The notes beneath the pieces were generated by a model. That model was not told where the DNA came from. It saw only the letters and a list, made by a program, of their open reading frames with translations, and did no database searches. Shown one piece after another: positions 7,777 through 48,660 of a stretch of DNA of 54,913 bases. Numbering within the stretch: the stretch's first letter is position 1; each line of letters starts with the position of its first letter. Source of the stretch: a virus (taxonomy: Duplodnaviria; Caudoviricetes); the IMG/VR virus record IMGVR_UViG_3300044695_005573, positions 1 to 54,913 of that record, one strand, 5' to 3'. Made by a program: the position numbers and the translations under genes.

Positions 7777-8682
7777 TTACTCCTTCACGTACTTGGCGTA
7801 TTCCTCGAGAGGAACACCCAGCTTTTTAGCAATTGCCACTTGACTTGGGGTCAATTTGACAGTGCGGCGTGCTGTGTTGTTGATCCCGGAGGATCGGGAG
7901 GCAGGCGCAACCGGTTGCACGTTACGGGCCCTGCTCTGCGTGCTCGCCCCGCCGTCCCCAAACTTCTGGGGAAAGGCGTCTCGAATACGTTTGTCAAGTT
8001 CATCATAGTACTCATCCGAGCTAGGGTCAAATCCCTCAACTTGGATCAACTGGCGGTGAATACCCCAGGCGGCATGGGTCATGACGTTGTCCCGGCCATA
8101 CCACTTGTTCTTTTCCGCCCACTCCTCCACTCGCGGGTCCACCTGCTGCTGCTGGGCGGGCTGCTGGGCCTGATAAGCCGCCTGCTGGGCGGCATACTGC
8201 TGCTGTTGCAAGTAGGCCTGGCGCTGGGCCGTGGCAGAGTCTAGCTGCCCCTGCTCCATCGTCAGGGCGGTCAACCGCTGCTGGGCCTCGGTTTCGGTGT
8301 CAATGTCACCTTCCTCACGGGCCTTGCGGATGATCTGCTTGAGGGCCACCGCCTGCGTCTCAACCCGGCTCTTGGCCTCAACCAGCCGCTCCTCGTCCGT
8401 ACGGACATACTGCTGCTCGAGCTCCTGAGCCCGGGCCTGCACCTGCTTGGCATACTCCAAGGCCGCCTGCTCACGGCGCTGGGTCTCGCGAAGCCGGGCC
8501 GTCAGCTTGTTGATGCGCTTCTGCACCCCCTCGCTGTACTGGTCCAGCTCCTCTTCCTTACGAGCCTGCCGCGGCTCCTCTTCCGTCACCAGAGGCAGCC
8601 TTGGGGCCTCCTCCTCAACGGGCACCTGTACGGTCGCGGGCTGCTCGCCCTCGCCGACGTTAAATTCCAACTGTTCGTTCAT
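7777..8682 (-). CDS. Capsid scaffolding protein (putative)
   Basis: Acidic N-terminus, long coiled coil and C-terminal VKLTPSQVAIAKKLGVPLEEYAKY helix; AGGAG SD before ATG at 8682. Confidence 0.7.
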   Translation of the reverse strand: MNEQLEFNVGEGEQPATVQVPVEEEAPRLPLVTEEEPRQARKEEELDQYSEGVQKRINKLTARLRETQRREQAALEYAKQVQARAQELEQQYVRTDEERLVEAKSRVETQAVALKQIIRKAREEGDIDTETEAQQRLTALTMEQGQLDSATAQRQAYLQQQQYAAQQAAYQAQQPAQQQQVDPRVEEWAEKNKWYGRDNVMTHAAWGIHRQLIQVEGFDPSSDEYYDELDKRIRDAFPQKFGDGGASTQSRARNVQPVAPASRSSGINNTARRTVKLTPSQVAIAKKLGVPLEEYAKYVKE

Positions 8683-8693
8683 CTCGGATCTCC

Positions 8694-9161
8694 TTACCAC
8701 ATGTGAAGGACGTCTTCAGGATCGGCAACGATCCCCAAGACCTCATCGTCGTTAATCAAACGAATCTCCCCGCCATCGATCGGGATCCGCGCGCCGGCAT
8801 AGCGGCCGAAGATGATCCAATCCCCCTCCTTGCACCACGGGCCGGTCGGGAACTTGACCTCATCGCCATAGGCGATAGGCCCAACCTTGAGGACATAGCC
8901 ACACACCGTCGAAACCTGCTGCTTGCGCTGGGTCTCTTCGGCCAAGGCAATGCCACCCTTGGTCTTCTCCGCACCCCGGTAGGGCAGGATCGCAATGCGC
9001 CACCCGGTCGGAGTGGGGATGCGGTTGAGTACCGCCGCATGGAGCTTGTCGGGCTTGAGCCCTTCGGCCGTGTAGGCATCTTCCAGGGATGGAACATGCG
9101 CTGCGGCCTCTTCCGCCCACTTTTTCTCTAAAGCCGTGGGCTCTTTAACTATCGCATTCAC
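8694..9161 (-). CDS. groES: Co-chaperonin GroES (Cpn10) homolog
   Basis: PTGWRIAILP...EKTKGGIAL...VLKVGP...GDWIIFGRYAG...RLINDDEVLGIV matches Cpn10 motifs. Confidence 0.9.
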   Translation of the reverse strand: MNAIVKEPTALEKKWAEEAAAHVPSLEDAYTAEGLKPDKLHAAVLNRIPTPTGWRIAILPYRGAEKTKGGIALAEETQRKQQVSTVCGYVLKVGPIAYGDEVKFPTGPWCKEGDWIIFGRYAGARIPIDGGEIRLINDDEVLGIVADPEDVLHMW

Positions 9162-9431: not shown

Positions 9432-9680
9432 TTAGTAAATCTTGACTGGGCGGTTGCCATCCTTCTTCTTGACCGTGCGCACAGCACCCATGACGCCGCC
9501 GTCCTTCATGCCGCGCGACTTGCCGGCCTTCGCATACGCGATCGCTGCCGCCTGTTTCACCGCAGCGGACTTGCTCTTCGGCTTGCTCGTGCCAATGCGG
9601 CCCTTTTCCTTGTAGGTGCCGACAAGCTCGCCGATGTTGCGGCTGATCGTCTTCTGGCTCGATCCCTTTTTAAGCGGCAT
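9432..9680 (-). CDS. Small basic protein (DUF6496-like) with MKDGG motif; true start 9680
   Basis: MPLKKGSSQKTISRNIGEL...KQAAAIAYAKAG...MKDGG; GAGGAGGG SD; overlaps the portal stop. Confidence 0.7.
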   Translation of the reverse strand: MPLKKGSSQKTISRNIGELVGTYKEKGRIGTSKPKSKSAAVKQAAAIAYAKAGKSRGMKDGGVMGAVRTVKKKDGNRPVKIY

Positions 9681-12003
9681 TTCGCCCTCCTCGTTGTAAC
9701 TGAAGTTGTAACTTCGCCTGGTCAATCTGCATCGACTGCTGAGCCTTTTGCGACTCAAGCTGCAACTTCGCCTGATCCAACTGCATCTTGGCCTGGTCGG
9801 CCGCGGCGCGCTGATCGAGCTCCTGCTTCTTGAGCGCCACCAACGGGTCCTCCCCGCCGCCAGCCGCCTCGCCAGAAAGTTGCCCTTGCAGGTTCTTGAG
9901 CTCCTGCAAGTAGGTGGCGATCTTGATCGCGACCATGCCTTCCTTCTGGATCGGCGACACCAGTCGATCGGGGTCGGTGCCGTACGCCTTGAAGATGTCC
10001 GCCTCAACGTCCTCTTCAGCCTTGATGCGCACGTGCTCGAAAATGTGCTGCTGAAGCTCCATAGCCGACATTGGAGCCGACTGAAGGATCGGTGACATGC
10101 CCATGATCAAGTGAGCGACGATGTGCGCGTCATGCTGCTGGCCCGGGAAGGCCTTGAGCTTCATCCCGTTCAACACAGAAGAGTTCTCGGACGCCGGATC
10201 ACGGGGCATCTGGTTGTTCTGCGGGATCAAGATGCCGTCGATGTCGCGGATGTTCAGCGCGGAATACACACGGTAGTACGCTTCGTACATGTTGTGCATC
10301 TGCGGGGCGCCCTGCGCCATCTGCAACTGCATCTGTGCAAGCTGGATGCGCTGCGCGGAGCTGAAAATGTTCGGGTCAGCAACCGGCAGCACCGAAACGA
10401 TCTTGTCGAAGTCCGTGCGCTTGACCTTGCGGCTCGCCCCCGGCACATCGTACGGGTACTCATCCTCAAGATACTGTCCAAAGCCCTCAAAGAGCAGCCG
10501 GAACTCAAGCGACTGGGCGTAATGCAGGCGCTTGTGGATCGCCGACATCACCATGGAGCCACGCTCGAGCAATGCGAGCGTCGTGCCGACCTGCGCGTAC
10601 TGATTTCCGTCGCCGACCTGCATGTCGGCCGTGCTCGAGAGGCGCTTGCCGGCGTCTACGAGGAATCCAAGCAGCGCAAACAGCACTTGGCTCGGCTCCT
10701 TGTACGGAAGCGGCAGCAAAGACGACTGCAACTCCGCGCCACCGGCGTCAATGTCGCGCCACTCGCCCGGTTGGATCGGATCCGAGTCGTCCGCGATGCG
10801 CGCGCCCTTGGCCTTGAAGCCCGCAGGCAGGTTGGCAAGCGTTCCGGCGTCGATCAACTGCCGCAACGCGCTCGTCGCCGACTTGGAAAGGCCGCCGATG
10901 AGGTGCACAAAGCCCAAACCGTACGCGCCGGGGCCTTCCACCAGCACGTAATGGACAAAATAGTTGCGCCGACGCTTCAGTTCATCGTCTTCGCGCCAGT
11001 TTCGGCGGATTCCGATGACCTTGAGCGAGTCTTCGGCGAGCGTAACGACGTACGGAAGCTTGATTCCCGTCGGTTCGCCGTCTTCGCCAATCTCTTCAAA
11101 GCCCGGCAGGTCCAAATCGACCAGCATTTCGAGCAAAAATACCTCGCCAGCCTGGTCCGTCGGCTGCACACCCGTCACTTTGTCGATTGCCGCCTGGATT
11201 TTGCTCGGGTCCGCGGGCGTCGGCTCAAGGTCAACGGCAATATCGAGGTATTCGCCGATCAAAACGCGCTTGCGGAACTCGTTTGAGTCCATCGCAATGC
11301 GGTGCGTCAGCCGCGAACACTGCGAAACAACGCTCGAACCGTTGTACGGGATGTACACATCGTCCGCCAGACACAGGCGGGAGACCATCCGACCGAGCTG
11401 AAAGTCGTAATAGACCTTCTTGAAGGTCGATCCGCCGTATCCGGTGTAGTACAGGAGCTGGTCGAACTCCGGGGTGTACTCCTCCATCACCGTCGTGAGC
11501 TGGTAATTCATGAAGTCCTGCACGCGCGCGGCTTGCTGGAACTTGTCGACGGTCTCTTTGCCTAGTACTTGCGTGCGAACCGGGCCACCCGCGGGCAGCA
11601 ATTCTTTAAACGCCTGCGACTGGAACTGGATGATCGCCTCTTGCAGCATCGGATGCGTCGCGCCAGAGGCGCCACGGAAGGGCTTGGTGCGCTCTTCCAT
11701 GCGCAGGCCCAGCAATTCCAGGCCCTTGGCGTACATCTGCTCCCAATCCGACCGCGATCCCTTGTCCGCCTCGAACATCGCCGAGACATCGATGGCAATC
11801 CGACCAAGGTCATCCGGGTCTACGACCTCCGCAAGGTTCGCGTAGAAGTCGACCTCTTTCGCCTCATCCTCGCCAATCTCGATGACCGCCCCGCCATCCG
11901 GCTCCAGGACGATCTCGATCTCCGGGGCCTCCTCTGGCGGACCCCCGGCAATGACCAGGACGCCTGCGTCAGGGGCTTGGTTGATCGCTTTATCAATTGG
12001 CAT
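9670..12003 (-). CDS. Portal protein
   Basis: 777 aa; FYANLAE...SRSDWEQMY...PFRGASG.THPML...ELLPAGGPV...GSTFKKVYYD...GLGFVHLIGGL; C-terminal coiled coil; position between TerL and head genes. Confidence 0.85.
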   Translation of the reverse strand: MPIDKAINQAPDAGVLVIAGGPPEEAPEIEIVLEPDGGAVIEIGEDEAKEVDFYANLAEVVDPDDLGRIAIDVSAMFEADKGSRSDWEQMYAKGLELLGLRMEERTKPFRGASGATHPMLQEAIIQFQSQAFKELLPAGGPVRTQVLGKETVDKFQQAARVQDFMNYQLTTVMEEYTPEFDQLLYYTGYGGSTFKKVYYDFQLGRMVSRLCLADDVYIPYNGSSVVSQCSRLTHRIAMDSNEFRKRVLIGEYLDIAVDLEPTPADPSKIQAAIDKVTGVQPTDQAGEVFLLEMLVDLDLPGFEEIGEDGEPTGIKLPYVVTLAEDSLKVIGIRRNWREDDELKRRRNYFVHYVLVEGPGAYGLGFVHLIGGLSKSATSALRQLIDAGTLANLPAGFKAKGARIADDSDPIQPGEWRDIDAGGAELQSSLLPLPYKEPSQVLFALLGFLVDAGKRLSSTADMQVGDGNQYAQVGTTLALLERGSMVMSAIHKRLHYAQSLEFRLLFEGFGQYLEDEYPYDVPGASRKVKRTDFDKIVSVLPVADPNIFSSAQRIQLAQMQLQMAQGAPQMHNMYEAYYRVYSALNIRDIDGILIPQNNQMPRDPASENSSVLNGMKLKAFPGQQHDAHIVAHLIMGMSPILQSAPMSAMELQQHIFEHVRIKAEEDVEADIFKAYGTDPDRLVSPIQKEGMVAIKIATYLQELKNLQGQLSGEAAGGGEDPLVALKKQELDQRAAADQAKMQLDQAKLQLESQKAQQSMQIDQAKLQLQLQRGGRNAA

Positions 12004-12041
12004 GTTGATATCCTAATACATTTAATGCAAAAAGGCCACGA

Positions 12042-15000
12042 CTAATCTTCGTTCATGCCCAGGCGCTGACGAATGGCTTGGATAGATCCTTCGTCAGGAA
12101 GGTTCTGCGGAGCATTTGGTAGTTGATTAAGGCGCACGTTGACGGGTCTCCCCTGCCCAGGCGGCAGCACTTTTCCGGCATACAAACGAATAGCTTTATA
12201 TAGCGGATCGCCGCCACCTTCGGAAGCGCCTGCAAGATGCCCTTCGGTGCTACCTTTGTACCCTGGGGGCAAAGGGTTAAAATCGTAGTTTTCTTGAAAC
12301 ACCAACTGCTTTGTTTTTGGATCAACGGTGTAACCAATACGGCCAAACGTGCGGTTTAGGGCTACTGGGGTGTGACTACCAAAAACACTAAGGCCACTAG
12401 GGTCACTAGGGTTTTTTAATGCGTCAATTAGGTAATCTTCATATCCCAAATTTGGGCCAATGCTAAATATATTGGCTACGTCGGCTACGCCGGCAGACCT
12501 TAGTCCCACCTCGCGCTCGTAAGTCTGTGAGTCGCCCGAAGCCAAATCAATAAAATCTTGTGTAATTACCCCTTTTTTATATTGTTTAATAGCGTCTAAA
12601 TCTTTTTTATATTGTGCAAAAAATTCTGGATACAGGATCTTGCCTTTGTTTTTCGCAGCAACAGCTTTTTGATGGCTAGCTAATGATTTAACTAAATATT
12701 TTTCGTACGTAGTTAAATCCGGCTCAATAGATTTGTATTTGCTGCGAACGACAGACATAAGCGCTTGGCGCTCTGGTTCCTTCATGGAGGCTTCGGTAAT
12801 CGGGTCTTTACGAGCATCGACAACAGACTCAAGGAAGATGCGCTTGTGTAGTGGCAAATCTTCGCGATTGACGTTTCTGCCATATAGCCCAAGTCCTGCG
12901 CCAACTAGTTTGTCGGCAAAGGTCAGATCGGGATTAAACCCTACCCCTTCCTCGCGAAGATCAGGCTGCTTAATCGGCGCGCCGCTCGGGGGACTCGTCG
13001 GGATTGAACGCGACAAATCGGAGCGCTCTAGTAACGAACGATACAAATCCGCGCTCGTCTCTCCCGTGCTCGGGCTACCCTTCGCACGCCTCTTGGGTTC
13101 TGTTTTCTTGTTCTTGTCCCCCGTACGCTCTTTTAACGCAGGTACCACAATCTGCACCGGACGACTAACTCCGGCCTGCTTTGCCTTCCGAATAAAAAAG
13201 TTGTCTTTTTCATTAACGTCACCCGTGAAGTCATACGTGTCTTTGACCACATACGATCCGTCAGGCATCTCCTTAAACGAGAACGTACCTAGGGTGTTAC
13301 GCAAGTTTGCCGTGGAAAAAAGCGAGCGGTCTGTGTCAGGCCCCGGCAAACCACCAAGGCGCTCATAGCGGTCTTTGTACGCGTCATGATGCGCGTATGT
13401 CACGGTGTTGGGCAGGGCCTTCCCTGTTTTTCTATCAGAAACCGGACGGGTCTTTGCCAACTCAATCAATCGGCGAAGTTTTGCCAATTCCGCTCCAGAC
13501 AAACTAGCCTCTGTAATTGGCTCCGTCCGCTTGGAAGATTCGCCCGACATCGACTCTAGGTACGTCCGAATGTGTAGCGGCACTATCCGCTCATCCGTTT
13601 CGTCAACCTCACCGCCCTCGTTAAACCGACGCGTCATCAGATCCCCGAGCCGCGATAACTGCTTCTTGGTCAGCCGGCCCTCGCCAAACGTATCACGCAT
13701 CAAATCCTTCGCCGACATCGCATCCCGCGAACGCACAGACTCGGACATCTTGAGAAGCTCCGCGAGCGTGTCAGGCGCGCGCCGTGGCTCTTGGGCCGTG
13801 GTCAACGACTCAAGCTCCATGGCCATGCCCTTCGCAGTGCCCCTGTCCGTCTCTTGACTGATCGGTTGCCGCGTCGCACGACGCACAGTCTGCGAGACCG
13901 GCGTCGCGTCAAACTCCACCTGCGTCTCACCAGGCGACTCCGACAAACTCTCCAACATGCCACGCGCAGAGTCGATGTTCTTCATCGACTCCGCATACGA
14001 GTCCTTGCTGTCACCCTTCAAGAGCGCAAGCAACTCAGCATCCGAAGACGGACCACCCTTCGCACGCCCCGTCGGACGCACCGCCCCAGGCGACAGGATG
14101 ATGTTGCCAAAACGGTCCGTGTAATACCCCGCGTTCTGCGCCCCACCCAACATCGTCGGCCCAAGGTTCGGGTTCGCAGCAAGCGCCTGCAACGGCAGAT
14201 TGCTCGTCTGCAAGCTCGGCAGCCGTGTGCTCGAGGGCAACGTGCCAGGGCTCAAGGCCCCAGGAGTCGGCGTGAAATACGGGGTCGATGTGCCTTGGCC
14301 CGGGGCAACGGGCAAGGGGTTCGCAATATACCCCGGCGTCGGAATGTTCGCGGTCGGGATGTACCCGCCACCAGGAATGCCCGTGGCCGGAGGCGACACA
14401 GGGATGTTGACCGGAGGCTGCGCAGGGGTGGGCGCAGGGGCGGGCCTGCCACCGCCCGTCTGCGGAGGAGGCGTTCTGCCACCACCAGGAGTCCCGCGTC
14501 CGGTCCGCGGCTCACGGCCGGCAGGGGGCTTTCCAATCCGACCAAGCAACCGGCCGACATCGCTGTTCGGGTCGATCGCGTTCCAGTTAAAGTTGAACCC
14601 GCCGCGCGCCGGCGTGCCGGTGTCCGGCTTCTCGTCGCGATCGTCGATGCCGTTCAGGTTCCTGTCGATGAAGTCGGCCGTACGGACAGGACCCATCTCG
14701 TCCTTCGGCGGCCGGGTGGTCGGAGGATTGACCGGCAACCTGCTGTCGATCAGCCCGGGGGGCGCCGTTCCGGTACCACCTCCGGTACCACCGCCCGGGG
14801 GCGGCTCCTCCCTCGGAGGAGGCCGGTTCCTCTGCTCTTCCTCCGCCCTGCGGCGAGCTTCCTCCGCTGCACGGCGGGCGGCCTCTTCAGCCGCCATCCG
14901 ACGAGCGTTCTCTTCCGCTAGGCGACGGGCTTCCTCAGCCGCTCGAGCAGCCGCCGCATCCTGCATCGCACGACGAGCAGCTTCCTCTTCAGCCGCTCGA

Positions 15001-16154
15001 CGAGCGGCCTCTTCAGCGGCTCTACGGGCGGCTTCATCGGCGACGCGCTTGGCGTCTTCCTCGGCCTTACGACGAGCTTCTTCTTCCGCGGCTTTGCGGG
15101 CGGCTTCTGCTTCTGCTGCACGACGGGCTTCCTCCTCTTGCGCTGCTTGGCGAAGTTGTTCATCCCGGAAACGGGCTATGTCTCCTTCCTCCGGTCGTGG
15201 GCCGGGGCCACCGGGCATGTAACTACCCCCCAAACCAATCCCTGAGAGATTGATGCCAGTCGTGAGCCCGCCAAACCCCGCGGCATTGATCCTGGCTAAC
15301 TCCGCCAACTGTTCCGGCGTCAGGGTCGTCGTGGGGGAGGTGCCCGTGAACTGAGCGAGATTGTCGGCTGCGCTGCCAGGGGCGGTAATCGGTTCGTCGT
15401 TTTCCGTACGAGGCACCCGATCACGCTCTTCTTGCTCGCGAATGAATGCCTCAACACTATCCTGTTTTTGCGGACGATTGCCAACGCCCCCGTCAAACGG
15501 GGGCCGTAAAAGATCCTCCTGCTCGCGCGTCTCTCGCCTCAGACGAGCACGCTCGGCCGCATCCGCACTCATGGCCATGCCAGAGGTTGTCGGCGGCGAG
15601 GCGGCGGGCTCGAAAACCGGAGCGGCTTCTGTCCGCGGTCTCGGGATGTAGTCCCGCTCTTCCTCCACAGGAGGCAGGAAGGACGGCCGGCCATACACCG
15701 GACTCGGCGGAGCGCCAGGGGACTCGTAAACCCTCGGCGGGGTGTACGCAGGGGGAGCAAACTGCTGAAGATCCGCCGCCGCAGAGCCAGGCTGCGCGGC
15801 CACCGGGGGCTCCGACTCAGGCTCTACCTGAGTGCGCATCGTGTCAGGGGCCACCGAAAACCCGGGGAACGGGGGAGCCACAACCTCCGATCGAGGCGCA
15901 GGCATCATCGGGTTATCCCCAAACAAGCCTAACGGCTCCTCCCCCTCACCAAGCGCCTCCATCCCAAACACAGGCTGATACTCGCGCAGCTTCGTCTTCG
16001 GGTTCTTGGTCCCCGCGCCACCGAGCTTCTTCAACAGCTCACGGGCCTTGGGGCTGAGGTAAGCCAACTCCGTGTCGCCCCCACGGCCTGCGGAAGCAAC
16101 CTTCTTGATAAACGACGCTGTGTCTTTCTTCGCGGACTTCTTGGCTTTGGCCAT
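12042..16154 (-). CDS. Large modular putative internal virion / cargo protein
   Basis: N-terminal domain paralogous to part of 46315..48660, Pro-rich linkers, EAARRAAEE coiled coil, then modules starting RAKGG / RFNEGG / RAKGS. Confidence 0.7.
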   Translation of the reverse strand: MAKAKKSAKKDTASFIKKVASAGRGGDTELAYLSPKARELLKKLGGAGTKNPKTKLREYQPVFGMEALGEGEEPLGLFGDNPMMPAPRSEVVAPPFPGFSVAPDTMRTQVEPESEPPVAAQPGSAAADLQQFAPPAYTPPRVYESPGAPPSPVYGRPSFLPPVEEERDYIPRPRTEAAPVFEPAASPPTTSGMAMSADAAERARLRRETREQEDLLRPPFDGGVGNRPQKQDSVEAFIREQEERDRVPRTENDEPITAPGSAADNLAQFTGTSPTTTLTPEQLAELARINAAGFGGLTTGINLSGIGLGGSYMPGGPGPRPEEGDIARFRDEQLRQAAQEEEARRAAEAEAARKAAEEEARRKAEEDAKRVADEAARRAAEEAARRAAEEEAARRAMQDAAAARAAEEARRLAEENARRMAAEEAARRAAEEARRRAEEEQRNRPPPREEPPPGGGTGGGTGTAPPGLIDSRLPVNPPTTRPPKDEMGPVRTADFIDRNLNGIDDRDEKPDTGTPARGGFNFNWNAIDPNSDVGRLLGRIGKPPAGREPRTGRGTPGGGRTPPPQTGGGRPAPAPTPAQPPVNIPVSPPATGIPGGGYIPTANIPTPGYIANPLPVAPGQGTSTPYFTPTPGALSPGTLPSSTRLPSLQTSNLPLQALAANPNLGPTMLGGAQNAGYYTDRFGNIILSPGAVRPTGRAKGGPSSDAELLALLKGDSKDSYAESMKNIDSARGMLESLSESPGETQVEFDATPVSQTVRRATRQPISQETDRGTAKGMAMELESLTTAQEPRRAPDTLAELLKMSESVRSRDAMSAKDLMRDTFGEGRLTKKQLSRLGDLMTRRFNEGGEVDETDERIVPLHIRTYLESMSGESSKRTEPITEASLSGAELAKLRRLIELAKTRPVSDRKTGKALPNTVTYAHHDAYKDRYERLGGLPGPDTDRSLFSTANLRNTLGTFSFKEMPDGSYVVKDTYDFTGDVNEKDNFFIRKAKQAGVSRPVQIVVPALKERTGDKNKKTEPKRRAKGSPSTGETSADLYRSLLERSDLSRSIPTSPPSGAPIKQPDLREEGVGFNPDLTFADKLVGAGLGLYGRNVNREDLPLHKRIFLESVVDARKDPITEASMKEPERQALMSVVRSKYKSIEPDLTTYEKYLVKSLASHQKAVAAKNKGKILYPEFFAQYKKDLDAIKQYKKGVITQDFIDLASGDSQTYEREVGLRSAGVADVANIFSIGPNLGYEDYLIDALKNPSDPSGLSVFGSHTPVALNRTFGRIGYTVDPKTKQLVFQENYDFNPLPPGYKGSTEGHLAGASEGGGDPLYKAIRLYAGKVLPPGQGRPVNVRLNQLPNAPQNLPDEGSIQAIRQRLGMNED

Positions 16155-16195: not shown

Positions 16196-17659
16196 TCAGT
16201 AGTATTCAGGAGCAAGCGTGCGTCCAGACGGCTCCGGTTTCTCGTCCGTGTTCAGCGTCACGAAGTTGCCCTGACGGAACCGCATGATCGCCTGCGTCGT
16301 CGAGTCGACCATGTCGTCGTTATCGCCGTTCGGGAACGCAGCGCACTCCTCGACCAGCTCTTCCGCCCAATCAGTGTCCGGGGCCCAGACCATCCCCGAC
16401 TCAAACACAGGCGCCACCGCATGCGCCCGGCTGATCTTGTCCGTGCCCGAACGACGACCGCCAGGGGTGTACATGGTGACAGGGATGCCCAGCCGCCGCA
16501 GCTCCTGCTGGAGCGTGACACCCGTGGCCTTCGCCTCGATCAGCACATTATCAGGATTCCAGTGCTTGTACTCGTCCTTTGCAATGCGCTTGAGCTCCGG
16601 GAAGTCCCACCGGCCTCGTACAACATCCAACAGGATGATGTTCGGCCCCGAGTCCTGGTCCGGGTAAAACACTCCCCAGGTCGTGATCACCGAGAAGTCC
16701 GCCGTCTCCTTCTTGCTGTAGGCCGTGTCATAGCTCTGGATGATGTAGTTCACAAGCGGGGGATTCGGATCCGGCCAGACCCGCCACCACTCACGCTTGA
16801 GGATTGCACCCTCGTCGTTTGTCGGCTGCTGCTGGTACATCGCGTTCCACTTCTGGACCGATAGCGATGCCTTGACCGATTCCAACTCCTCGAGCTTCCA
16901 GAACTCCGGCCACAACGGCTTGCCACTCGGCAGGATCGCCGGGAACTCAATGACCTCCCACTTGTCCGCGCCACGGCTGGCCTGCGCCTTGAGCAGCCGG
17001 GCCGTCAGGTCCTTCGTTCCCCAGCGCGTCATCACGAGCACGATCGCACCGCCCGGCTGCAAACGGGTACGCGGACCGCCCTGGTACCAGTCCCAGGCGT
17101 TATCTAGCGCAAGCTCCGACAGCGCGTCCTGTTCCGAATGCGGGTCGTCGATGATCAAGATGTCCGCACCGCGGCCGGTCACGGCACCGCCCACGCCGAC
17201 TGCAAAGTAACTACCGCCCGCGTTCGTGTCCCACCGGCCGGCAGCCTTGCTGTCCTGCTTCAGGACCACCTCGGGGAACAGCTCCTTGTAGCGGTCACTG
17301 TCCATCAGGTCACGCACCTTGCGGCCGAACTTAACGGCAAGCTCCGCCGTGTGCGTCGCCTCAAGGGCCTGAAGGTTGGGGTTACGGCCCATCAGGTACG
17401 CGGGCAGCAGATACGACGCAAACTCCGACTTGGTGTGACGGGGCGGCATGTTCACGATCAGCCGCTTCAGCGTCCCGCTGGCAATGCGGTCAAACGCACT
17501 CGCCATGCGCCGGTGATGCTCGCCCAGGATTGCCGAGGGCCACACATAGCGCACGAAGTCGATGAAGTTCTTGCGCGCCTTGTCCTGCGTGTCGAGCAGC
17601 ATCAGCCGGTATTCCAACCGCAGACGCTCCTCCTCGATCTCCTTCGGAACGGCGCTCAT
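16196..17659 (-). CDS. terL: Terminase large subunit
   Basis: Walker A-like MPPRHTKSE, Walker B ILIIDD, VMTRW coupling motif, nuclease SYDTA and DDMVD. Start at 17659 (MSAVP) is my preferred choice. Confidence 0.93.
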   Translation of the reverse strand: MSAVPKEIEEERLRLEYRLMLLDTQDKARKNFIDFVRYVWPSAILGEHHRRMASAFDRIASGTLKRLIVNMPPRHTKSEFASYLLPAYLMGRNPNLQALEATHTAELAVKFGRKVRDLMDSDRYKELFPEVVLKQDSKAAGRWDTNAGGSYFAVGVGGAVTGRGADILIIDDPHSEQDALSELALDNAWDWYQGGPRTRLQPGGAIVLVMTRWGTKDLTARLLKAQASRGADKWEVIEFPAILPSGKPLWPEFWKLEELESVKASLSVQKWNAMYQQQPTNDEGAILKREWWRVWPDPNPPLVNYIIQSYDTAYSKKETADFSVITTWGVFYPDQDSGPNIILLDVVRGRWDFPELKRIAKDEYKHWNPDNVLIEAKATGVTLQQELRRLGIPVTMYTPGGRRSGTDKISRAHAVAPVFESGMVWAPDTDWAEELVEECAAFPNGDNDDMVDSTTQAIMRFRQGNFVTLNTDEKPEPSGRTLAPEYY

Positions 17660-17870
17660 GGGGTCGAATTGCTTTTCATATGCGCAAAATTTTTGCACAA
17701 GTTGACAAGTTGATCAACCGGGGTGGTTTTTTTCTACCCGGGTACCCCGTTCTCTTTAGCCGCACATTGACTGTCTGAAATCAGGCATACGCCCGCGAAG
17801 CCAACAAAGCGGCCTGTTTTTTGGGCCCCGGGGCGCGGAATTCCCCTAGGCCGTGGCGCCGTGCAGCTCG

Positions 17871-17903
17871 CTCAAAGATTGTTCAAAGAATTGCTCAAAG
17901 ATT
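17871..17903 (+). repeat. Three tandem (C/T)TCAAAGA(A)TT(G) repeats
   Basis: CTCAAAGATTG TTCAAAGAATTG CTCAAAGATT directly left of the heptamer array. Confidence 0.7.
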
Positions 17904-18213
17904 ACGGCCCACGGCCCACGGCCCACGACCAGCGGGCGGCGGACCACGGACCACGGCCCACGACCAGCGGACGGCGGCCCACGACCAGCGGGCGGCGGAC
18001 GGCGGGCGGCGGACGGCGGGCGGCGGGCGGCGGACGGCGGACGGCGGGCGGCGGGCGGCGGGCGGCGGGCGGCGGACGGCGGGCGGCGGGCGGCGGGCGG
18101 CGGGCGGCGGGCGGCGGGCGGCGGGCGGCGGACCACGGACCAGCGGGCGGCGGACCACGGACCAGCGGGCGGCGGGCGGGCGACCACGGCCCACGACCCA
18201 CGACCCACGGCCA
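17904..18213 (+). repeat. Heptamer tandem array (about 44 units; GGCGGGC / GGCGGAC / CCACGGC / CCACGAC)
   Basis: 7-bp periodicity; no T on the + strand for 310 bp; non-coding, between the early island terminator and terL. Confidence 0.92.
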
Positions 18214-18421: not shown

Positions 18422-19078
18422 CTAGGCGGCTTCAGCGGCTTCAGCGGCTTCAGCGGCTTCAGCGGGTTCGGTGACTTCAGCGACTGCGATCGCGGACGGT
18501 GTGACCAGCCATGAGGGGTTATCCAACGGTTGCGGGTCGCCGCGCATGGGCATGATTACGCCCACGGCGTCGCCCGTCAGTACAACACGCGCAGCGGCGT
18601 CGCCGTTATGCCGGATGCTGGGCGAGTAGGCTCCCCCTAGCAGCTTGTGAACCTTGCCGAACGCGCCGATATAGTCCGCGTTGAATTGCGACACCTCGCC
18701 GGACACGGTGAGCGGTACAACCCTGCGCCAGTCGGGATACTTATCGTCCATCAGCGGGGAGGATGACACGGTGCTACCGTTGTCAATCGTCGCCGTGCGC
18801 GTGGTCGGGTCAATCGTTACGGTGATAGGACGCTTCAATACAGCCTTGACGCCTTCCAACGCCTCGCGCCGGATGATGTACTGACCAGGTACGAGCGCGG
18901 GCGCGTCATCGGTCGCGGTGAGTGCCACGGCTAGCAGCTTATGGCCGTCCGTTGCAACGGCTACAGCATCTGATGCGCGAACATCAATGCACACGGAATT
19001 CAAATAGTGGCGGATGTCGTTCTTGCCCGCGATAACGAGCAACGCTTTAATGGTGTCGGCGGGGGTATGAAATTGCAT
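18422..19078 (-). CDS. DNA polymerase III beta-clamp-like protein (two-domain, truncated)
   Basis: IRHYLNSV...AVATDGHKL...KYPDWRRVVP...FNADY...VIMPMR parallels the DnaN middle and C-terminal domain motifs (RYYLNG, VATDGHRL, FPDYRRVLP, VVMPMR). C-terminal 9-bp tandem repeat encodes AEA x4. Confidence 0.75.
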   Translation of the reverse strand: MQFHTPADTIKALLVIAGKNDIRHYLNSVCIDVRASDAVAVATDGHKLLAVALTATDDAPALVPGQYIIRREALEGVKAVLKRPITVTIDPTTRTATIDNGSTVSSSPLMDDKYPDWRRVVPLTVSGEVSQFNADYIGAFGKVHKLLGGAYSPSIRHNGDAAARVVLTGDAVGVIMPMRGDPQPLDNPSWLVTPSAIAVAEVTEPAEAAEAAEAAEAA

Positions 19079-42219: not shown

Positions 42220-44364
42220 TTAACGCTTCCTCTTTTCTAGTTCCAACGCGGCGGAATTTACATCGCGTCGTATGGTCCCGTTAATCAAGACCTCTGTTGT
42301 TCCCGGAGGCAGGTTGAGCATGTCTGCTTCGCTATACACGGACGGCGGAAGATCAAAGTAACTGAGCAGACGCTCAAGCGTCGACACCTTGGCCCGTGCT
42401 TCGCCTACCTGCTCTGGACGCAGTGTTGCGCCCAATGATCCCGGACGAGTGTCGGACTTCTTGCGGTAGTCGTCCAGCACTTGATTAATAATCGTGGAAA
42501 GACCGATAAGATGCGTCCCGTAGGCTTCTGGATCCTTCCAAACCCCGGGTTTGATCTTCAACATACCCTGCAACATGCGCTGCTCTGTCACGCTGTTCTG
42601 CGCGCTCTTGAGGAAGGCCTCCGTGGCCTCCTCCGCAACAATTTCTGCCTGTGAACGCGCAAGTGTGATGTCCTTAAACGGATCGCCAAGCACCGGGGTC
42701 TGCGAAACGGCTGCATAAACGGCCGCGAAGGGGCCTGAAACTCTCGAGCGATTGCCCCACAACGATATCGGAGCTGTCATCGCCACTTCCCGCGACAAAC
42801 GTGCGGGCTCATCAGCAGGACGATCCGATGCACGCGCGGTGCCCGCCTCGGTTCGCTGTTCTCCGCCCGGAGAAAGCAACGGAGCAGGCGCTTCGACCAC
42901 CTCGCCAGGAGCCGCCTCGACGCGAGTGGTCTCGTCCGTAACCGGCTTGTGATCAAGCGTGACCTGCGTGCCAGGAGGAACACTACCGCTCTTGCGCATG
43001 TCCTGCGCCTGTATGACGAATGCGGGCAGTTGATTACCTGGGAGTTTCGTCGGCTCGCCCGTTGGTCTTCCAGATACCGGATCAATAGCTTGCGTATATC
43101 GCGGCTGCGTATAGTCTGTAATGGCCGAAGCGATAAGGTTGTTCTCCTCCAGCGTTGTCTGGCCCGTGGCATACCGTTCCATAAGCCCCGGGGCGTTGAA
43201 GATTTTAAACGCCCAGTTGCCCGTGAAACTGCCTGCCCCGCGCCGTTCTGCGGCCTTGAATCGCGCATCTGCCTGAAGAATTGTGTTGAGCACCGCTCGC
43301 TTCTCTGAAGCAAGCTTGGTGTTGATCTGCTGGATCTCATCACGATCCTTCTCGCCCGCCTGCAACGCCAAGAGCTTGAGCTGACGCTGCGTCGTCTCGA
43401 TGTCGTTGACGCGCTTTTGAATGGCAGCGGGAAGATTGCTGAACGCCCCGGCCAGCCGCGACACCGGCGAGCCGCGGAGGGCTTCGCCGCGCGGGCCGCG
43501 GTTCGAGGCGAAATTAAGCGCCGCCCCGGCAATGTCAAACAGCATGTTTGCCTTGGTGGCCTCACGGTCCGGGGCAAGCATCTGCTCGTACTGAGGAAGC
43601 CGTGCCGCCATCGCTTGTTCAAGCGTCGGAACTGCTTGCGGACGCTGGGACAACGAGCTCATCGCCGCCATTTGCGCCATTTCAGTCATCTCAGGAGAGT
43701 AAAGCATGCCCGCGGCAGTGCTTCTTTCATCGTACGGGGTCACGCCCTCCTCATCGGACCCGTCCTGAAAACGCTGGACAAGCCCGCCGTCCTTCATCTG
43801 GATCGGAGGCAGTCCTTCCGGCGGAATCGGCTGGCCATCCGGCCCCGTCATCGGTCCCGGAGGTGCCATGCCGCCCCCAGGGGGAGGGCCGGCAGCAGCG
43901 AGAAGAGCGGCCATGTCACCGCCGGCAGGCGGTGTGGCTCCGCCAGGAGGAGGAGGCGGAGCACCGGGAGGCATAGCTCCCATGGGTCCCCCCGGGGGCG
44001 GCGGCATTGGAGGTTGTGGCCCTTGGGCCATGGGCTCTGATTGGGGCAGCGCGCCGATCCCGCCGCCCTGCGCGAGCACCGGCTGGAGCATCGCAAGGAC
44101 AGAATCGGGAGTTTCGGTCGCGGCCTCGTATCCCACCAGATCGGCAAGCTCTTCGCGACGCGCATCGACCGAGCGCATGTCGCCGCGAAGGTTGTTCATA
44201 AGGATTTCAGGCGAATCGACGCGACGGTTGAGCATTTTTGCGGAAACTGCGTCGTCGGAGTTTTCCTCCTCTTCGCGTTCGTTCTCTTCCTCGCCAACAT
44301 CGTCGAGGAAGCCCTGCATAATGCCGACGTTTTCGTAGTCGTCCATCATCTTGTCTTTCATCAT
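42220..44364 (-). CDS. Internal virion / ejection protein (putative)
   Basis: LMNNLRGDMRSVDARREELADLVG domain, Pro/Gly linker, MKDGGLV..FQDGS motifs. Confidence 0.65.
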   Translation of the reverse strand: MMKDKMMDDYENVGIMQGFLDDVGEEENEREEEENSDDAVSAKMLNRRVDSPEILMNNLRGDMRSVDARREELADLVGYEAATETPDSVLAMLQPVLAQGGGIGALPQSEPMAQGPQPPMPPPPGGPMGAMPPGAPPPPPGGATPPAGGDMAALLAAAGPPPGGGMAPPGPMTGPDGQPIPPEGLPPIQMKDGGLVQRFQDGSDEEGVTPYDERSTAAGMLYSPEMTEMAQMAAMSSLSQRPQAVPTLEQAMAARLPQYEQMLAPDREATKANMLFDIAGAALNFASNRGPRGEALRGSPVSRLAGAFSNLPAAIQKRVNDIETTQRQLKLLALQAGEKDRDEIQQINTKLASEKRAVLNTILQADARFKAAERRGAGSFTGNWAFKIFNAPGLMERYATGQTTLEENNLIASAITDYTQPRYTQAIDPVSGRPTGEPTKLPGNQLPAFVIQAQDMRKSGSVPPGTQVTLDHKPVTDETTRVEAAPGEVVEAPAPLLSPGGEQRTEAGTARASDRPADEPARLSREVAMTAPISLWGNRSRVSGPFAAVYAAVSQTPVLGDPFKDITLARSQAEIVAEEATEAFLKSAQNSVTEQRMLQGMLKIKPGVWKDPEAYGTHLIGLSTIINQVLDDYRKKSDTRPGSLGATLRPEQVGEARAKVSTLERLLSYFDLPPSVYSEADMLNLPPGTTEVLINGTIRRDVNSAALELEKRKR

Positions 44365-46314: not shown

Positions 46315-48660
46315 TTATTTGCCCTCAACCTTGCCGCCTTCCAGCATTTTCATCAGTTTGTACATGCGCCGCGCGCCTTTGCGGCGACTTCCGCCGCCGG
46401 CGTTGCGAACAGCACGTGCCGTGAACACGAATTCCCCGTCCGAAAGCATCGCCGGGATCGAATCCGAGGTTCCCGTGCCGGGGCCGTCGATCGGGCCCGT
46501 TTTACGCGGGAAATGGGTCGGTTGACCACCGTCACGCAGCCCCTGGGCGGCCATAATCCCCTGGTTATTTTGCTTGTTTAGCGTTTGAACGGCCTGTCCC
46601 GCGGCCATTGCCGCCTCCGGGCCGCCGTACAACAGCCCTTCGGTCTGCGCCACCTGGAAAGGATCCTTCGCCGCCTGCTTGACCGCATTCGTCACGGCAC
46701 CGCCCTGCCGATACCCAGTGGGGCGCGCCGGCTGAACCGGGTTCCCGTACAGCAACGGCACGCCGTACGTCCCGGAGACGTTATACGGCTGCGGGATGCC
46801 TTCCGGCATGTTCGTCGGGGAGCCGCTCGGGGTGAAGTACCTCGGAACAGGGCTCACGGGCATCGTCGGATAAGGCCCGGGGGCCGTGGGGCTTGGGCCG
46901 CGGTTCGTGTTCAGTGCGTCAAGCCCATACGACGGGGTTTCCACCACCGGGTTGTAGGGCTTCAGCACCGTGGGCGTGAGGCCGCCGGCGAACTTTTCCG
47001 GGTTGTCGCGGATGTAGTCTTCGCCCGTGTAGTTACGATCGAAGAGCGGGTTCTCGTCCGACTTCCCTGCTTTAAATCCGCCGGCGAGGCCGGAGACGGT
47101 AAGCGCCGTTGCGACACCCGGCACGTATCGACCAAGCTTTGAGGTCGCCTCGGGGTTGACAAGAAACGCGTTCTTGAAGCCCTCGAACGTCGGCTTCTCG
47201 CCACCCGGGGCGAGGGTTCTGAGGTAACTCCCCATGCGCCCAAACATGCCCGAGCCCGGCGTGGTGGCGGGGGTTGCGGAGACGTCGGTGGCCCGGGCCA
47301 GCGCCTGCTCAAACCTAGCGCCCGAGACGCCGGAGGGCGTCACGTAGGGCACCGAAGAGCCAACGGGCTGTGTCTGCGGAGCGCCAGCGCCTGTCGTTTC
47401 ATATGGTCCGCTAACGACACCTCGCATCGCATCTGGATTAGGCGTATCAGACCCGCCTGCAACCATGTCGTAGGCTTGCCCAGCTTGCGTCCGCATGGGA
47501 ACTCTTTTCCCGGTGACACTGACCTCTTGAAGCTGGTCAGCTCCCGGGGGCTTATAGGACATGCCCGCCATGACGCCTGACTGAAGGCCCATGCCAAGGG
47601 CTTCCTGCGTGCCCATGCCCGCGAGTTTGCCGACCGTCGCGCTTGTGAGGCCCGCGCCAATGCCCTGCGCAAGCTTACCCCCCTCGGTAACCCCAGGAAT
47701 CTTGCCCGCATACTTTGCGATGCTCGAAACCGGGTTGACGCCGAACGCCGTGCCGCCCGCGCCGAAATAGCTCGTCGCGGCATTGATCAACAGGCTCTTA
47801 GCGTTGATCTTCTCACCGGCCATGGCAGAAACGCCCGCAGCCGCCGCGGTGGAGGCCAGGGCGGTAGAGGCCGCCGCAGCGGTCGTGGACAAGGCCACGC
47901 CTGCGGCAGTGCCCGTGGCAGCGCCTACGACGCTCGCCGCGGCCGGTCCGAGGACCGTGGCAAGTGCGACCGTGGCGATTACGCGAAAGATCGGGTTTTT
48001 AAGGACCTTCTTGACCGCCTTCTTGACGCTCTTAAAGAGCTTCTTCAGGAAGAATTCAGGCAGGCCGGTCTTGGGGTTGATCGTCCCGGAACCGCCCATG
48101 GCCTTGAGAAGCCGCGCTTCCCCCGGGGTGATATGGGCAAGGATCGAGTCGCCATTGCGACCCTGAGAGGCCAGATACTTAGCTACATCGGCCAGGCCAC
48201 CCTGGGCCATGGCCATCGGCTCAAGGCCTTCGACGGCCGGCGACATCTCCATCGGGGCCTGCGCGCCCTGAGCGCCGGAGGCCTGATACTCGTTAAGAGC
48301 CATGATGGCAACGCCGAGGAAGGCCGGGTCGTACTCTTCCGGCAGGTCATCGGCGTCCATCATCCCGGTGTCGATCAGGCGCTGGCGAAGCTGCGGATAC
48401 TCGTCCGGCTTCTGCGACATGTACTCGAGGACCTCGAGTAGCGCCGAAACCTCAGCCGGGCTGAGGTCCAGTTCGTCAATGCTTTCCCTGACCGCCTGGC
48501 GGACAGCCTCTGCTTGCGCAGGGTCGCCCGAAGACATGCCCAATGCCGTCAGAGCGGCGTCGTAACTGTCCGCGCTCGAGACGTAAAGCGGCTGGTCCGT
48601 GGGCCTTGGATCTTGCATGGCTTGCCCTGCGGGCAGGCCCATGATGCCTTCATTTTCCAT
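46315..48660 (-). CDS. Internal virion / ejection protein with membrane-active segment (putative)
   Basis: MAQGG, GRNGDSILAHITP..GGSGTINPKTGLPEF, amphipathic and hydrophobic helices, C-terminal GPGTGTSDSIPAMLSDGEFV. Confidence 0.7.
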   Translation of the reverse strand: MENEGIMGLPAGQAMQDPRPTDQPLYVSSADSYDAALTALGMSSGDPAQAEAVRQAVRESIDELDLSPAEVSALLEVLEYMSQKPDEYPQLRQRLIDTGMMDADDLPEEYDPAFLGVAIMALNEYQASGAQGAQAPMEMSPAVEGLEPMAMAQGGLADVAKYLASQGRNGDSILAHITPGEARLLKAMGGSGTINPKTGLPEFFLKKLFKSVKKAVKKVLKNPIFRVIATVALATVLGPAAASVVGAATGTAAGVALSTTAAAASTALASTAAAAGVSAMAGEKINAKSLLINAATSYFGAGGTAFGVNPVSSIAKYAGKIPGVTEGGKLAQGIGAGLTSATVGKLAGMGTQEALGMGLQSGVMAGMSYKPPGADQLQEVSVTGKRVPMRTQAGQAYDMVAGGSDTPNPDAMRGVVSGPYETTGAGAPQTQPVGSSVPYVTPSGVSGARFEQALARATDVSATPATTPGSGMFGRMGSYLRTLAPGGEKPTFEGFKNAFLVNPEATSKLGRYVPGVATALTVSGLAGGFKAGKSDENPLFDRNYTGEDYIRDNPEKFAGGLTPTVLKPYNPVVETPSYGLDALNTNRGPSPTAPGPYPTMPVSPVPRYFTPSGSPTNMPEGIPQPYNVSGTYGVPLLYGNPVQPARPTGYRQGGAVTNAVKQAAKDPFQVAQTEGLLYGGPEAAMAAGQAVQTLNKQNNQGIMAAQGLRDGGQPTHFPRKTGPIDGPGTGTSDSIPAMLSDGEFVFTARAVRNAGGGSRRKGARRMYKLMKMLEGGKVEGK

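Follow-up and report, generated by a model that had tools for sequence, protein, structure and literature searches.

What kind of protein is encoded between the terminase and portal genes of an uncultured lake phage, and how is its modular C-terminal half put together? The question is raised by P0001, an open reading frame (ORF) of 1370 amino acids (aa) in the IMG/VR virus record IMGVR_UViG_3300044695_005573 (Duplodnaviria; Caudoviricetes), whose whole stretch of 54,913 nucleotides (nt) is the window analyzed here (54.9 kb; completeness estimate 90%). P0001 lies upstream of portal and on the same strand as both terL and portal, with gaps of 41 nt on the terL side and 38 nt between its stop codon and the portal start (Table 1). 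A sequence-only reading had placed the ORF between these two genes and described it as a polymorphic protein whose modules begin at RAKGGP, RFNEGGEV, and RAKGSP; the ORF coordinates and the PHROG assignments of the flanking genes confirm the placement, and all three motifs stand in P0001 at the positions given for them. The comparisons described below indicate that the ORF is probably an allele at a hypervariable locus for polyvalent ("cargo") proteins, in a lake-water lineage related to DSL-LC04 and to HTVC023P-type podophages.

The C-terminal modules of this locus are swapped between near-identical phages exactly at two short peptide motifs. Of the 347 relatives that a terL search of IMG/VR returned, the best 80 were retained, and a P0001 search added 20 loci; 49 distinct terL–portal intervals were readable and analyzed. 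These intervals span 2725–6847 nt, with one large ORF (739–1835 aa) in 33 of the 49 and two or more ORFs of at least 250 aa in the other 16. The longest, at 6847 nt, holds four extra small ORFs (117–162 aa; L039:7629-9365) between a 1667-aa cargo gene and portal. Two loci, L009 and L012, are 99.8–100% identical to the window in terL and 99.7% identical in portal, yet their intervals encode two proteins (921 + 657 aa and 897 + 663 aa, respectively) in place of the window's single 1370-aa protein. When the window DNA is compared with L009, where the flanks are 99% identical, identity ends with the third base of codon 850, which encodes the final V of RFNEGGEV, returns at aa 1019.7–1065 (91%), is lost again, and resumes right after the stop codon. 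Protein comparison places the end of a high-scoring segment pair (HSP) at aa 849–851 in 16 of the 49 loci, and the core preceding this point was detected in most relatives. The orthologs are thus not collinear, and both the relatives' cassettes and the breakpoints at motifs support the earlier proposal of interchangeable C-terminal modules joined at conserved junctions.

Window residues 1017–1068 correspond to aa 9–60 of a separate second gene in L009, L012, and L029 (85% identity). Because this segment matches the start of the relatives' second gene, the window allele is an in-frame fusion of their two genes. The fused form was also found in contigs L006, L007, L010, L011, and L086, which come from other samples, and a 3465-nt contig of the independent lake run X7 spans 11500–14739 in fused form; these contigs show that the fusion is no assembly artifact. 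Fused and split alleles coexist at the population level. The window stretch is represented in 19 lake-water runs, at 84–90% of sampled words, and contigs from four lake runs were compared with it. A contig from run X1 is window-like to position 13098, and its next 30 letters match the start of the second gene of L009 and L012 without a difference; a contig from run X20 follows the core and diverges below 13607, at codon 850. Loose ends at 12004 (X1) and 11970 (X16) fall at the boundary with portal. Relative to the window, three lake runs also have one extra nucleotide after 13852 and lack one at 13857 or 13858; the two changes compensate each other and alter about two core residues.

Listing GG and GS motifs across 66 locus proteins yielded two classes of junction peptide. 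Type 1 has the consensus [RK]-[RK]-[FMY]-x-x-G-G-[EPLA]-[VA], in which F comes first in 83 of 117 cases, E follows GG in 82 of 117, and V or A comes next in 107 of 117. It was matched 118 times in 67 proteins, against 7.3 times in shuffled sequences (maximum 15 in 200; 16-fold), about 10 of the matches being the unrelated HSVGGY..GG core of a PcfJ-like region. Type 2 has the consensus R-[AS]-x-G-S-P-x-x-G-E, with 25 matches against 0.135 in shuffles (maximum 2; ~185-fold). It occurs once per locus in 24 of the 49 loci, internally in 17 of these and at aa 14–20 of the second gene in the remaining 7. The sequence-only reading had written the junctions of P0001 as one pattern, R[AF]xxG[GS]. The motifs do mark junctions, but RAKGGP is a degenerate type-1 motif that aligns with FAKGG and FAEGG in relatives, whereas RAKGSP belongs to type 2 (RAxGSPxxGE).

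The motifs coincide with the points at which relatives part. Close relatives (≥60% identity) gave 228 internal HSP ends, of which 57 fall inside a motif (5.8 expected; maximum 16 in 500 randomizations) and 86 lie within 10 aa of one (15.2 expected). The peptide FAEGGEV is encoded by 10 different DNA strings, and because so many DNA versions specify the same peptide, the motifs are maintained by protein-level selection, beyond what DNA identity alone would preserve. Two further large proteins of the phage, P0007 and the ORF at 42220–44364, contain type-1 motifs, and in P0007 the motif directly precedes a GDSILAHITPGE motif. Beyond the IMG/VR relatives, junction motifs were found in the proteins between terL and portal of DSL-LC04 and HTVC027P.

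One alternative is that P0001 is a polyprotein, the term used in the sequence-only reading, in which GG-E and GSPxxGE are maturation cleavage sites, with a phage protease separating the modules in the capsid or after ejection. The motifs stand at module boundaries and are conserved in protein despite synonymous change; Glu is prevalent after GG and is mostly followed by V or A, and the type-2 motif near the start of the separate second gene resembles a short N-terminal propeptide. Processing into units has also been proposed for polyvalent proteins by Iyer, Burroughs, Anand, de Souza, and Aravind (2017; PMC5512222; statements from this paper refer to the part of its text that was accessible). 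We nevertheless consider this alternative doubtful, as Pfam and PHROGs revealed no protease family in the window's large structural genes or in P0001, and P, A, or L follows GG in 31 of 117 cases, so Glu is not universal.

The exchanged cassettes contain recognizable families. A Pfam scan of 59 variable segments, with five near-duplicate loci and pieces shorter than 60 aa left out, identified DUF6973 in 15 segments, LPD23 in 4, PcfJ in 4, and DUF6884 in 2; no peptidase family was among these four. In L009, the cassette following RFNEGGE is a DUF6973 domain, in place of the window's first C-terminal module (module A; the last is module B). The PcfJ-like domain (PF14284), which takes its name from a protein of a conjugative plasmid, was identified in the DSL-LC04 homolog and in the second genes of L009, L012, and L029; the window protein has no Pfam match to it. 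In a collection of 5.8 billion proteins, core homologs numbered 40 (789–1730 aa), of which 13 carry DUF6973, one carries PcfJ, and 26 carry nothing known.

LPD23 is a "large polyvalent protein associated domain," a class defined by Iyer et al. (2017; PMC5512222). According to that study, phages encode about 35% of polyvalent proteins; these are regarded as packaged in the capsids of portal-terminase phages and often have lysozyme-type domains (PMC5512222). P0001 resembles them as a large multidomain protein of a portal-terminase phage that is coded among virion genes, whose domains are shuffled between alleles, whose allelic cassettes include LPD23 and PcfJ, and whose repeated domain has solo versions adjoining phage structural genes. 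Unlike them, the window allele has no LPD, metallopeptidase, or known effector and consists of a conserved core and two copies of one unnamed domain; the embedded zincin-like metallopeptidase that is frequent but not universal in polyvalent proteins was not recognized in P0001 by Pfam or PHROGs. Additionally, two short peptides mark its module boundaries, and term searches of the text of PMC5512222 returned no such junction motif. The repeated domain, called DxYDFN here, may already be one of LPD1–40 of Iyer et al. (PMC5512222), and the domain or its orthogroup may already be listed in the supplementary data of PMC5512222 or PMC9599517.

Because the allelic cassettes carry LPD23 and PcfJ, polyvalent proteins are a closer category than the MuF toxins to which the sequence-only reading had compared P0001. 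MuF polymorphic toxins, reportedly described by Jamet and colleagues in 2017, do share with it a place in the head module, a conserved N-terminal part, variable C-terminal domains, and presumed delivery with the DNA. The analogy fails in that P0001 has no MuF (Phage_Mu_F) domain (0 Pfam families at E ≤ 0.1), its gene is upstream and not downstream of portal, and no immunity gene follows it, since portal starts so soon after the stop codon. MuF fusions are mentioned in the accessible text of PMC5512222. The junctions themselves also have parallels, and we compared them with those of other modular systems. In bacterial polymorphic toxins, VENN in CdiA and PxxxxDPxGL in Rhs proteins are short conserved peptides that mark the exchange point of variable C-terminal domains, as the motifs described here do. 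Unlike those, the phage motifs form two classes, recur several times per protein, permit exchange at internal positions as well as at the end, and appear in other large proteins of the same phage. T4 internal proteins and the P1 Dar proteins are packaged in the head and injected, some of them being processed and some carrying short targeting sequences; in T4-type internal proteins, a prohead protease removes an N-terminal capsid-targeting sequence. DdrB and DarB are the P1 examples (PMC5512222), and neither group is related in sequence to P0001.

The last two modules of the window protein are homologous to each other, as had been proposed. BLASTP of P0001 against itself returned the identity match alone, and comparison of module A with module B aligned only the first 40 residues, over the PLH..ITEAS stretch (E 3e-5), a second collinear HSP being insignificant alone (E 2.7). 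However, a profile built from 16 module-A homologs of related contigs, excluding the window and its near-copies, matched module B at E 1.8e-9 (profile positions 1–71) and 1.5e-6 (positions 93–150), with a whole-sequence E-value of 7.6e-15 in a two-sequence search. As a profile without window-like sequences matches both halves of module B, the two modules share ancestry at only 23–24% pairwise identity; module B has in addition a ~95-aa helical insertion and a second, shorter one. Both modules are lower in G+C content than the record (0.517 in module A and 0.457 in module B, against 0.591), and the lowest 500-nt stretch of the whole record lies at 12301, inside the last module, at 0.418 (mean 0.592, standard deviation 0.049; ~3.5 standard deviations below), which bears out the earlier impression of AT-richness. 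The identical 14-nt word noticed at the two RAKG junctions, ACCCTTCGCACGCC, occurs in the record only at 13077 and 14055, with 0 expected in 100 shuffles, and the two sites agree at 22 of 27 nt (81% over the 27-nt stretch).

The repeated module represents a new domain family with enzyme-like conservation and, as judged from its conserved residues, a putative active site. The DxYDF(N) domain is found in 20 of the 49 loci and occurs twice only in window-like alleles. A profile search of 1.84 billion cluster representatives retrieved 618 clusters at E ≤ 1e-3, of which 202 reached E ≤ 1e-10 and 25 reached E ≤ 1e-30; many members stand alone at 166–300 aa, and others occupy different places within proteins as long as 1934 aa. 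The domain is matched by no Pfam model, either in P0001 or in nine stand-alone members, and PHROGs gave only weak matches to the C-terminal end of phrog_7348 (2564 positions, annotated endolysin). In module A numbering, residues Y66, G102, D118, Y120, and R144 do not vary among 38 sequences, nor does D121 among 18. Module B is 64–65% identical to a stand-alone 284-aa protein, and homologs at 72% identity exist; in L102, a stand-alone homolog is encoded directly upstream of another terL type (phrog_2). A search with the canonical member P0049 as sole query found no viral contig. The close stand-alone homologs, including the gene upstream of terL in L102, and the low G+C content mark cassette B as a recent import of a free-standing gene.

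Confident AlphaFold2 models of module A (predicted local distance difference test score 77.9, predicted template modeling score 0.73) and module B (85.8 and 0.82) both have a helical N-terminal half and a small three-stranded sheet bearing the conserved residues. Their matches in BFVD are uncharacterized proteins of uncultured phages (E 2e-20, template modeling (TM) score 0.83), and an hmmsearch of family profile A1 against the PDB gave no relevant match. Among 50 longer proteins that bear the domain, 11 have an SLT lytic transglycosylase at the N-terminus (aa 9–105), 38 have the type-1 motif, 32 the type-2 motif, and 14 the PcfJ-like HSVGGY signature. Of the clues to function, the SLT partnership is the strongest, and it points to virion-borne proteins that may act on the cell wall at entry.

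A more specific proposal for this function is that the DxYDFN domain is distantly related to the catalytic domain of colicin M and would cleave undecaprenyl-pyrophosphate-linked envelope precursors (lipid II or similar) in the periplasm at entry. This is a functional sub-hypothesis that is compatible with the polyvalent-locus reading, and we regard it as tentative and rather unlikely. Colicin-M-type bacteriocins fill six of the top ten Foldseek rows for module A, and the nearest Pfam-bearing ESM Atlas cluster to module B is Colicin_M (score 0.90, 177 shared features). An hmmsearch of family profile A2 against the PDB ranked colicin M second to sixth (E 0.34–0.49), with DDKYDFNASTHR aligned to D-x-Y-D-F-N. 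Comparison by hhalign with a colicin M family alignment, which was built from a tool-derived sequence, gave P-values of 2.4e-4 (probability 43.5%) and 6e-4 (28%) over 42 columns (colicin M 224–265). Its score of 34.1 was reached by none of 100 column shuffles (13.0 ± 2.3, maximum 21.9) and none of 100 ten-column block shuffles (18.3 ± 4.1, maximum 29.7). In this alignment D118, Y120, and D121 correspond to D226, Y228, and D229 of colicin M, which are essential there according to the accessible part of PMC8469651, and the association of the domain with the peptidoglycan-cleaving SLT in 11 of the 50 larger proteins fits a role at the cell wall.

Several findings speak against this link. The colicin M signature is DxYD(x5)HR, of which H235 and R236 are likewise essential (PMC8469651, accessible part); in the phage domain, YDFN is followed by a variable-length insert with no conserved His-Arg, and the dyad is missing at the (x5) spacing. 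The global folds do not superpose (TM score 0.19 to 3da4 for module A and 0.14 to 4g76 for module B, with probabilities of 0.01–0.11), Pfam Colicin_M (PF14859) matched neither P0001 nor the nine stand-alone members, and the hhalign probability stays below 50%. Furthermore, colicin M was chosen after database-wide searches, one short motif may drive all four signals, and the best hidden Markov model stretch in colicin M is residues 96–149, outside the catalytic domain. The phage domain resembles colicin M (PF14859) in having D-x-Y-D-F-N, then a helix, then a strand whose end reads basic-x-[VY]-x-I-x-[LI]-P, and differs from it in lacking the (x5)HR half, the global fold, a Pfam match, and receptor or translocation domains. 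We therefore do not place the domain in the colicin M family, given the missing HR, the non-superposing folds, the absent Pfam match, and the chance that a single short motif lies behind every signal. The central domain of colicin M (P0158; residues 96–149, VYDAYHF...ERSVNIA) itself shows the same D-x-Y-x-F ... R-x-V-x-I pattern, which may reflect an old internal duplication in colicin M or chance. A literature search for colicin M-type lipid II activity in phage virions turned up only antimicrobial-peptide reviews. It is improbable that the domain is a version of the lipid II phosphoesterase of colicin M borne by phages, carried in the virion and ejected into the periplasm (alone, in tandem, or beside SLT) to cut lipid-linked precursors at entry, and that both motif peptides are an undescribed pair of capsid-docking or processing signals defining plug-in cargo slots across many uncultured aquatic phage lineages.

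Returning to the polyvalent cargo locus, its architecture runs from a 48-aa N-terminal motif through low-complexity spacers to a ~150-aa core flanked by type-1 motifs ([RK][FMY]xxGG[EP][VA]), with exchangeable cassettes behind it. The window allele has a short DxYDF domain as its first cassette, followed by the R-A-x-G-S-P-x-x-G-E motif that opens the second gene in its closest relatives, and its last cassette is the long-form DxYDFN domain, derived from a lower-GC source in which it is a stand-alone gene. The N-terminal motif matches 48052–48195 (−) in the tape-measure-like protein P0007 at 50% identity (E 2e-8), and it is only as this ~48-aa shared motif, and not as a domain, that the "virion-type N-terminal domain" of the sequence-only reading stands. 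Given its position, the motif common to P0007, the SLT partners, and the precedent of polyvalent proteins, we infer that the protein would be packaged in the capsid and ejected with the DNA. The DxYDFN domains would be enzymes acting on the cell envelope at entry, and both motifs may be functional peptide signals, for docking or processing, that double as recombination joints.

Several observations weigh against this reading. First, Pfam (E ≤ 0.1) and PHROGs recognized 0 families in P0001 and in aa 851–1370, and the same searches gave P0001 neither the metallopeptidase common in polyvalent proteins nor an LPD domain of its own. Second, tblastn against 50,697 isolated phage records returned 0 matches to P0001 or to the canonical domain member P0049, and Foldseek found nothing in the PDB at E ≤ 0.001 (best E 0.35 for module A and 0.67 for module B); for want of a PDB fold match, the enzymatic role derives from conserved polar residues, the SLT association, and a weak resemblance to colicin M. 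Third, the motif enrichment counts overstate the number of events, because related sequences are not independent. Finally, no prohead protease was recognized by Pfam or PHROGs in the genes scanned, many small ORFs lying outside the scan, and the accessible text of the HTVC023P-type and DSL-LC04 papers contains no proteomics.

Two further alternatives would remove the cargo role altogether. P0001 might be no virion component but an intracellular protein of infection, such as an assembly or anti-defense factor, merely sited in the packaging operon. The lack of a virion-targeting domain recognized by Pfam or PHROGs in P0001 is in line with this, but the gene sits between terL and portal on the same strand with short gaps, its N-terminal motif is common to a tape-measure-like protein, the allelic cassettes carry polyvalent-protein domains, and relatives of its repeated domain occur in fusion with SLT, which typifies virion-borne proteins that degrade the wall, so that we judge an intracellular role clearly improbable. 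That P0001 is an external structural protein (a head or tail fiber or receptor-binding protein) whose swapped C-terminal modules change host recognition without delivering cargo is very improbable: no part varies more than this locus, which is set between two near-identical genes, and phage receptor-binding proteins do have a conserved N-terminal part with C-terminal modules exchangeable at conserved joints, but the cassettes here are PcfJ, LPD23, DUF6973, and a domain that is rich in helices and conserves polar residues, instead of fiber, beta-helix, or lectin folds, the same domain stands alone (166–300 aa) or behind an N-terminal SLT, and candidate tail genes lie elsewhere (38.5–51.7 kb).

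Table 1. Features of P0001 and related genes in the window
Feature	Position (nt)	Strand	Remarks
P0001, whole ORF	12042..16154	(−)	1370 aa; window's allele of the hypervariable terL–portal locus
terL	16196-17698	same as P0001	phrog_38, E 3e-117; Terminase_6C
portal	9670-12003	same as P0001	phrog_1216, E 4e-36
N-terminal motif, aa 12-59 (GDTELAYLSP...NPKT)	15978..16121	(−)	common to tape-measure-like P0007
Low-complexity spacers	14820..15977	(−)	Pro-rich aa 60-334; charged coil aa ~335-445, 8-aa periodicity
Gly/Pro/Thr-rich region, aa 446-696	14067..14819	(−)	C-terminal ~100 aa conserved in relatives
Conserved core, aa 697-850	13605..14066	(−)	bounded by RAKGGP and RFNEGGEV
RAKGGP, aa 697-702	14049-14066	(−)	degenerate type-1 motif
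RFNEGGEV, aa 843-850	13605-13628	(−)	canonical type-1 motif
Module A, short-form DxYDF domain, aa 858-1006	13137..13583	(−)	profile matches; AlphaFold2 model
Segment aa 1017-1068	12951..13106	(−)	contains type-2 motif RRAKGSPSTGE (13059-13091); equals start of relatives' second ORF
RAKGSP, aa 1023-1028	13071-13088	(−)	
Cassette B, long-form DxYDFN domain, aa 1073-1351	12102..12938	(−)	domain proper aa ~1100-1345; low G+C content
C-terminal tail, aa 1352-1370	12045..12101	(−)	missing from stand-alone module-B homolog
P0007, tape-measure-like protein	46315..48660	(−)	type-1 motif MAQGGLA and GDSILAHITPGE; second protein with both signals
714-aa protein	42220-44364	(−)	no Pfam/PHROG family; type-1-like motif MKDGGLV at aa 190

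The Pro-rich region of P0001 differs in length between near-identical relatives, with an indel at aa 229–334 relative to L006 and L009, and the charged coil is encoded by a 24-nt periodic array (repeats at 14830–15131) that includes both copies of EAARRAAEE (aa 374 and 424). An ESM Atlas search with the core (aa 690–852) gave no usable match. The last ~30–45 residues (aa 1327/1342–1370; ~12045–12143) resemble the C-termini of the second ORF in L035 (48%) and L098 (66%), proteins otherwise unrelated to P0001, which suggests a conserved end-piece of the locus. In P0007, aa ~150–205 form a composite in which MAQGGLA is followed ~12 aa later by GDSILAHITPGE...NPKTGLPEF, and the same composite was also found at aa 163–224 of the distant cargo alleles L068, L075, and L078. 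The GDxxLAH motif matches hypothetical proteins of other phages, such as Methylophilales phage Venkman.

Two neighboring regions were also inspected. Between the RusA-like gene (18422–19078) and terL, positions 17900–18210 hold a ~300-bp non-coding array of 7-nt units (CCGCCCG, CCGTCCG, and GGTCGTG, − strand) with a G+C content of 0.82–0.84 and strong skew, which could be a candidate packaging or protein-binding site. The region between portal and the major capsid gene, at 7777–8700 (−) and 8694–9161 (−), contains the gene of a 307-aa protein that has a weak coiled-coil match and is probably a scaffold, as well as a GroES-like gene (phrog_3188).

The category of polyvalent or cargo proteins with shuffled domains is known already. 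What is new is that such a locus sits between terL and portal in this abundant aquatic lineage, that two junction peptides mark it, that its repeated domain belongs to the unnamed DxYDFN family, and that fused and split alleles coexist at the population level. Among known marine viral groups, the HTVC023P-type phages, relatives of this one, are reported to be the most abundant (bioRxiv 10.1101/2019.12.14.876532, accessible part), and their structural proteins are almost wholly unannotated. That the locus differs between phages whose terL and portal flanks have 99.7–100% identity, and that its variants coexist in single lake samples, suggests that it is a front line of phage–host or phage–phage conflict. 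The analysis also brings out an unnamed domain family that is widespread (618 clusters) and has a putative active site. Its two short motifs, which flag the cassette slots, could help to find cargo proteins in metagenomes, and lipid II hydrolases of the colicin M type may be connected with phage entry.

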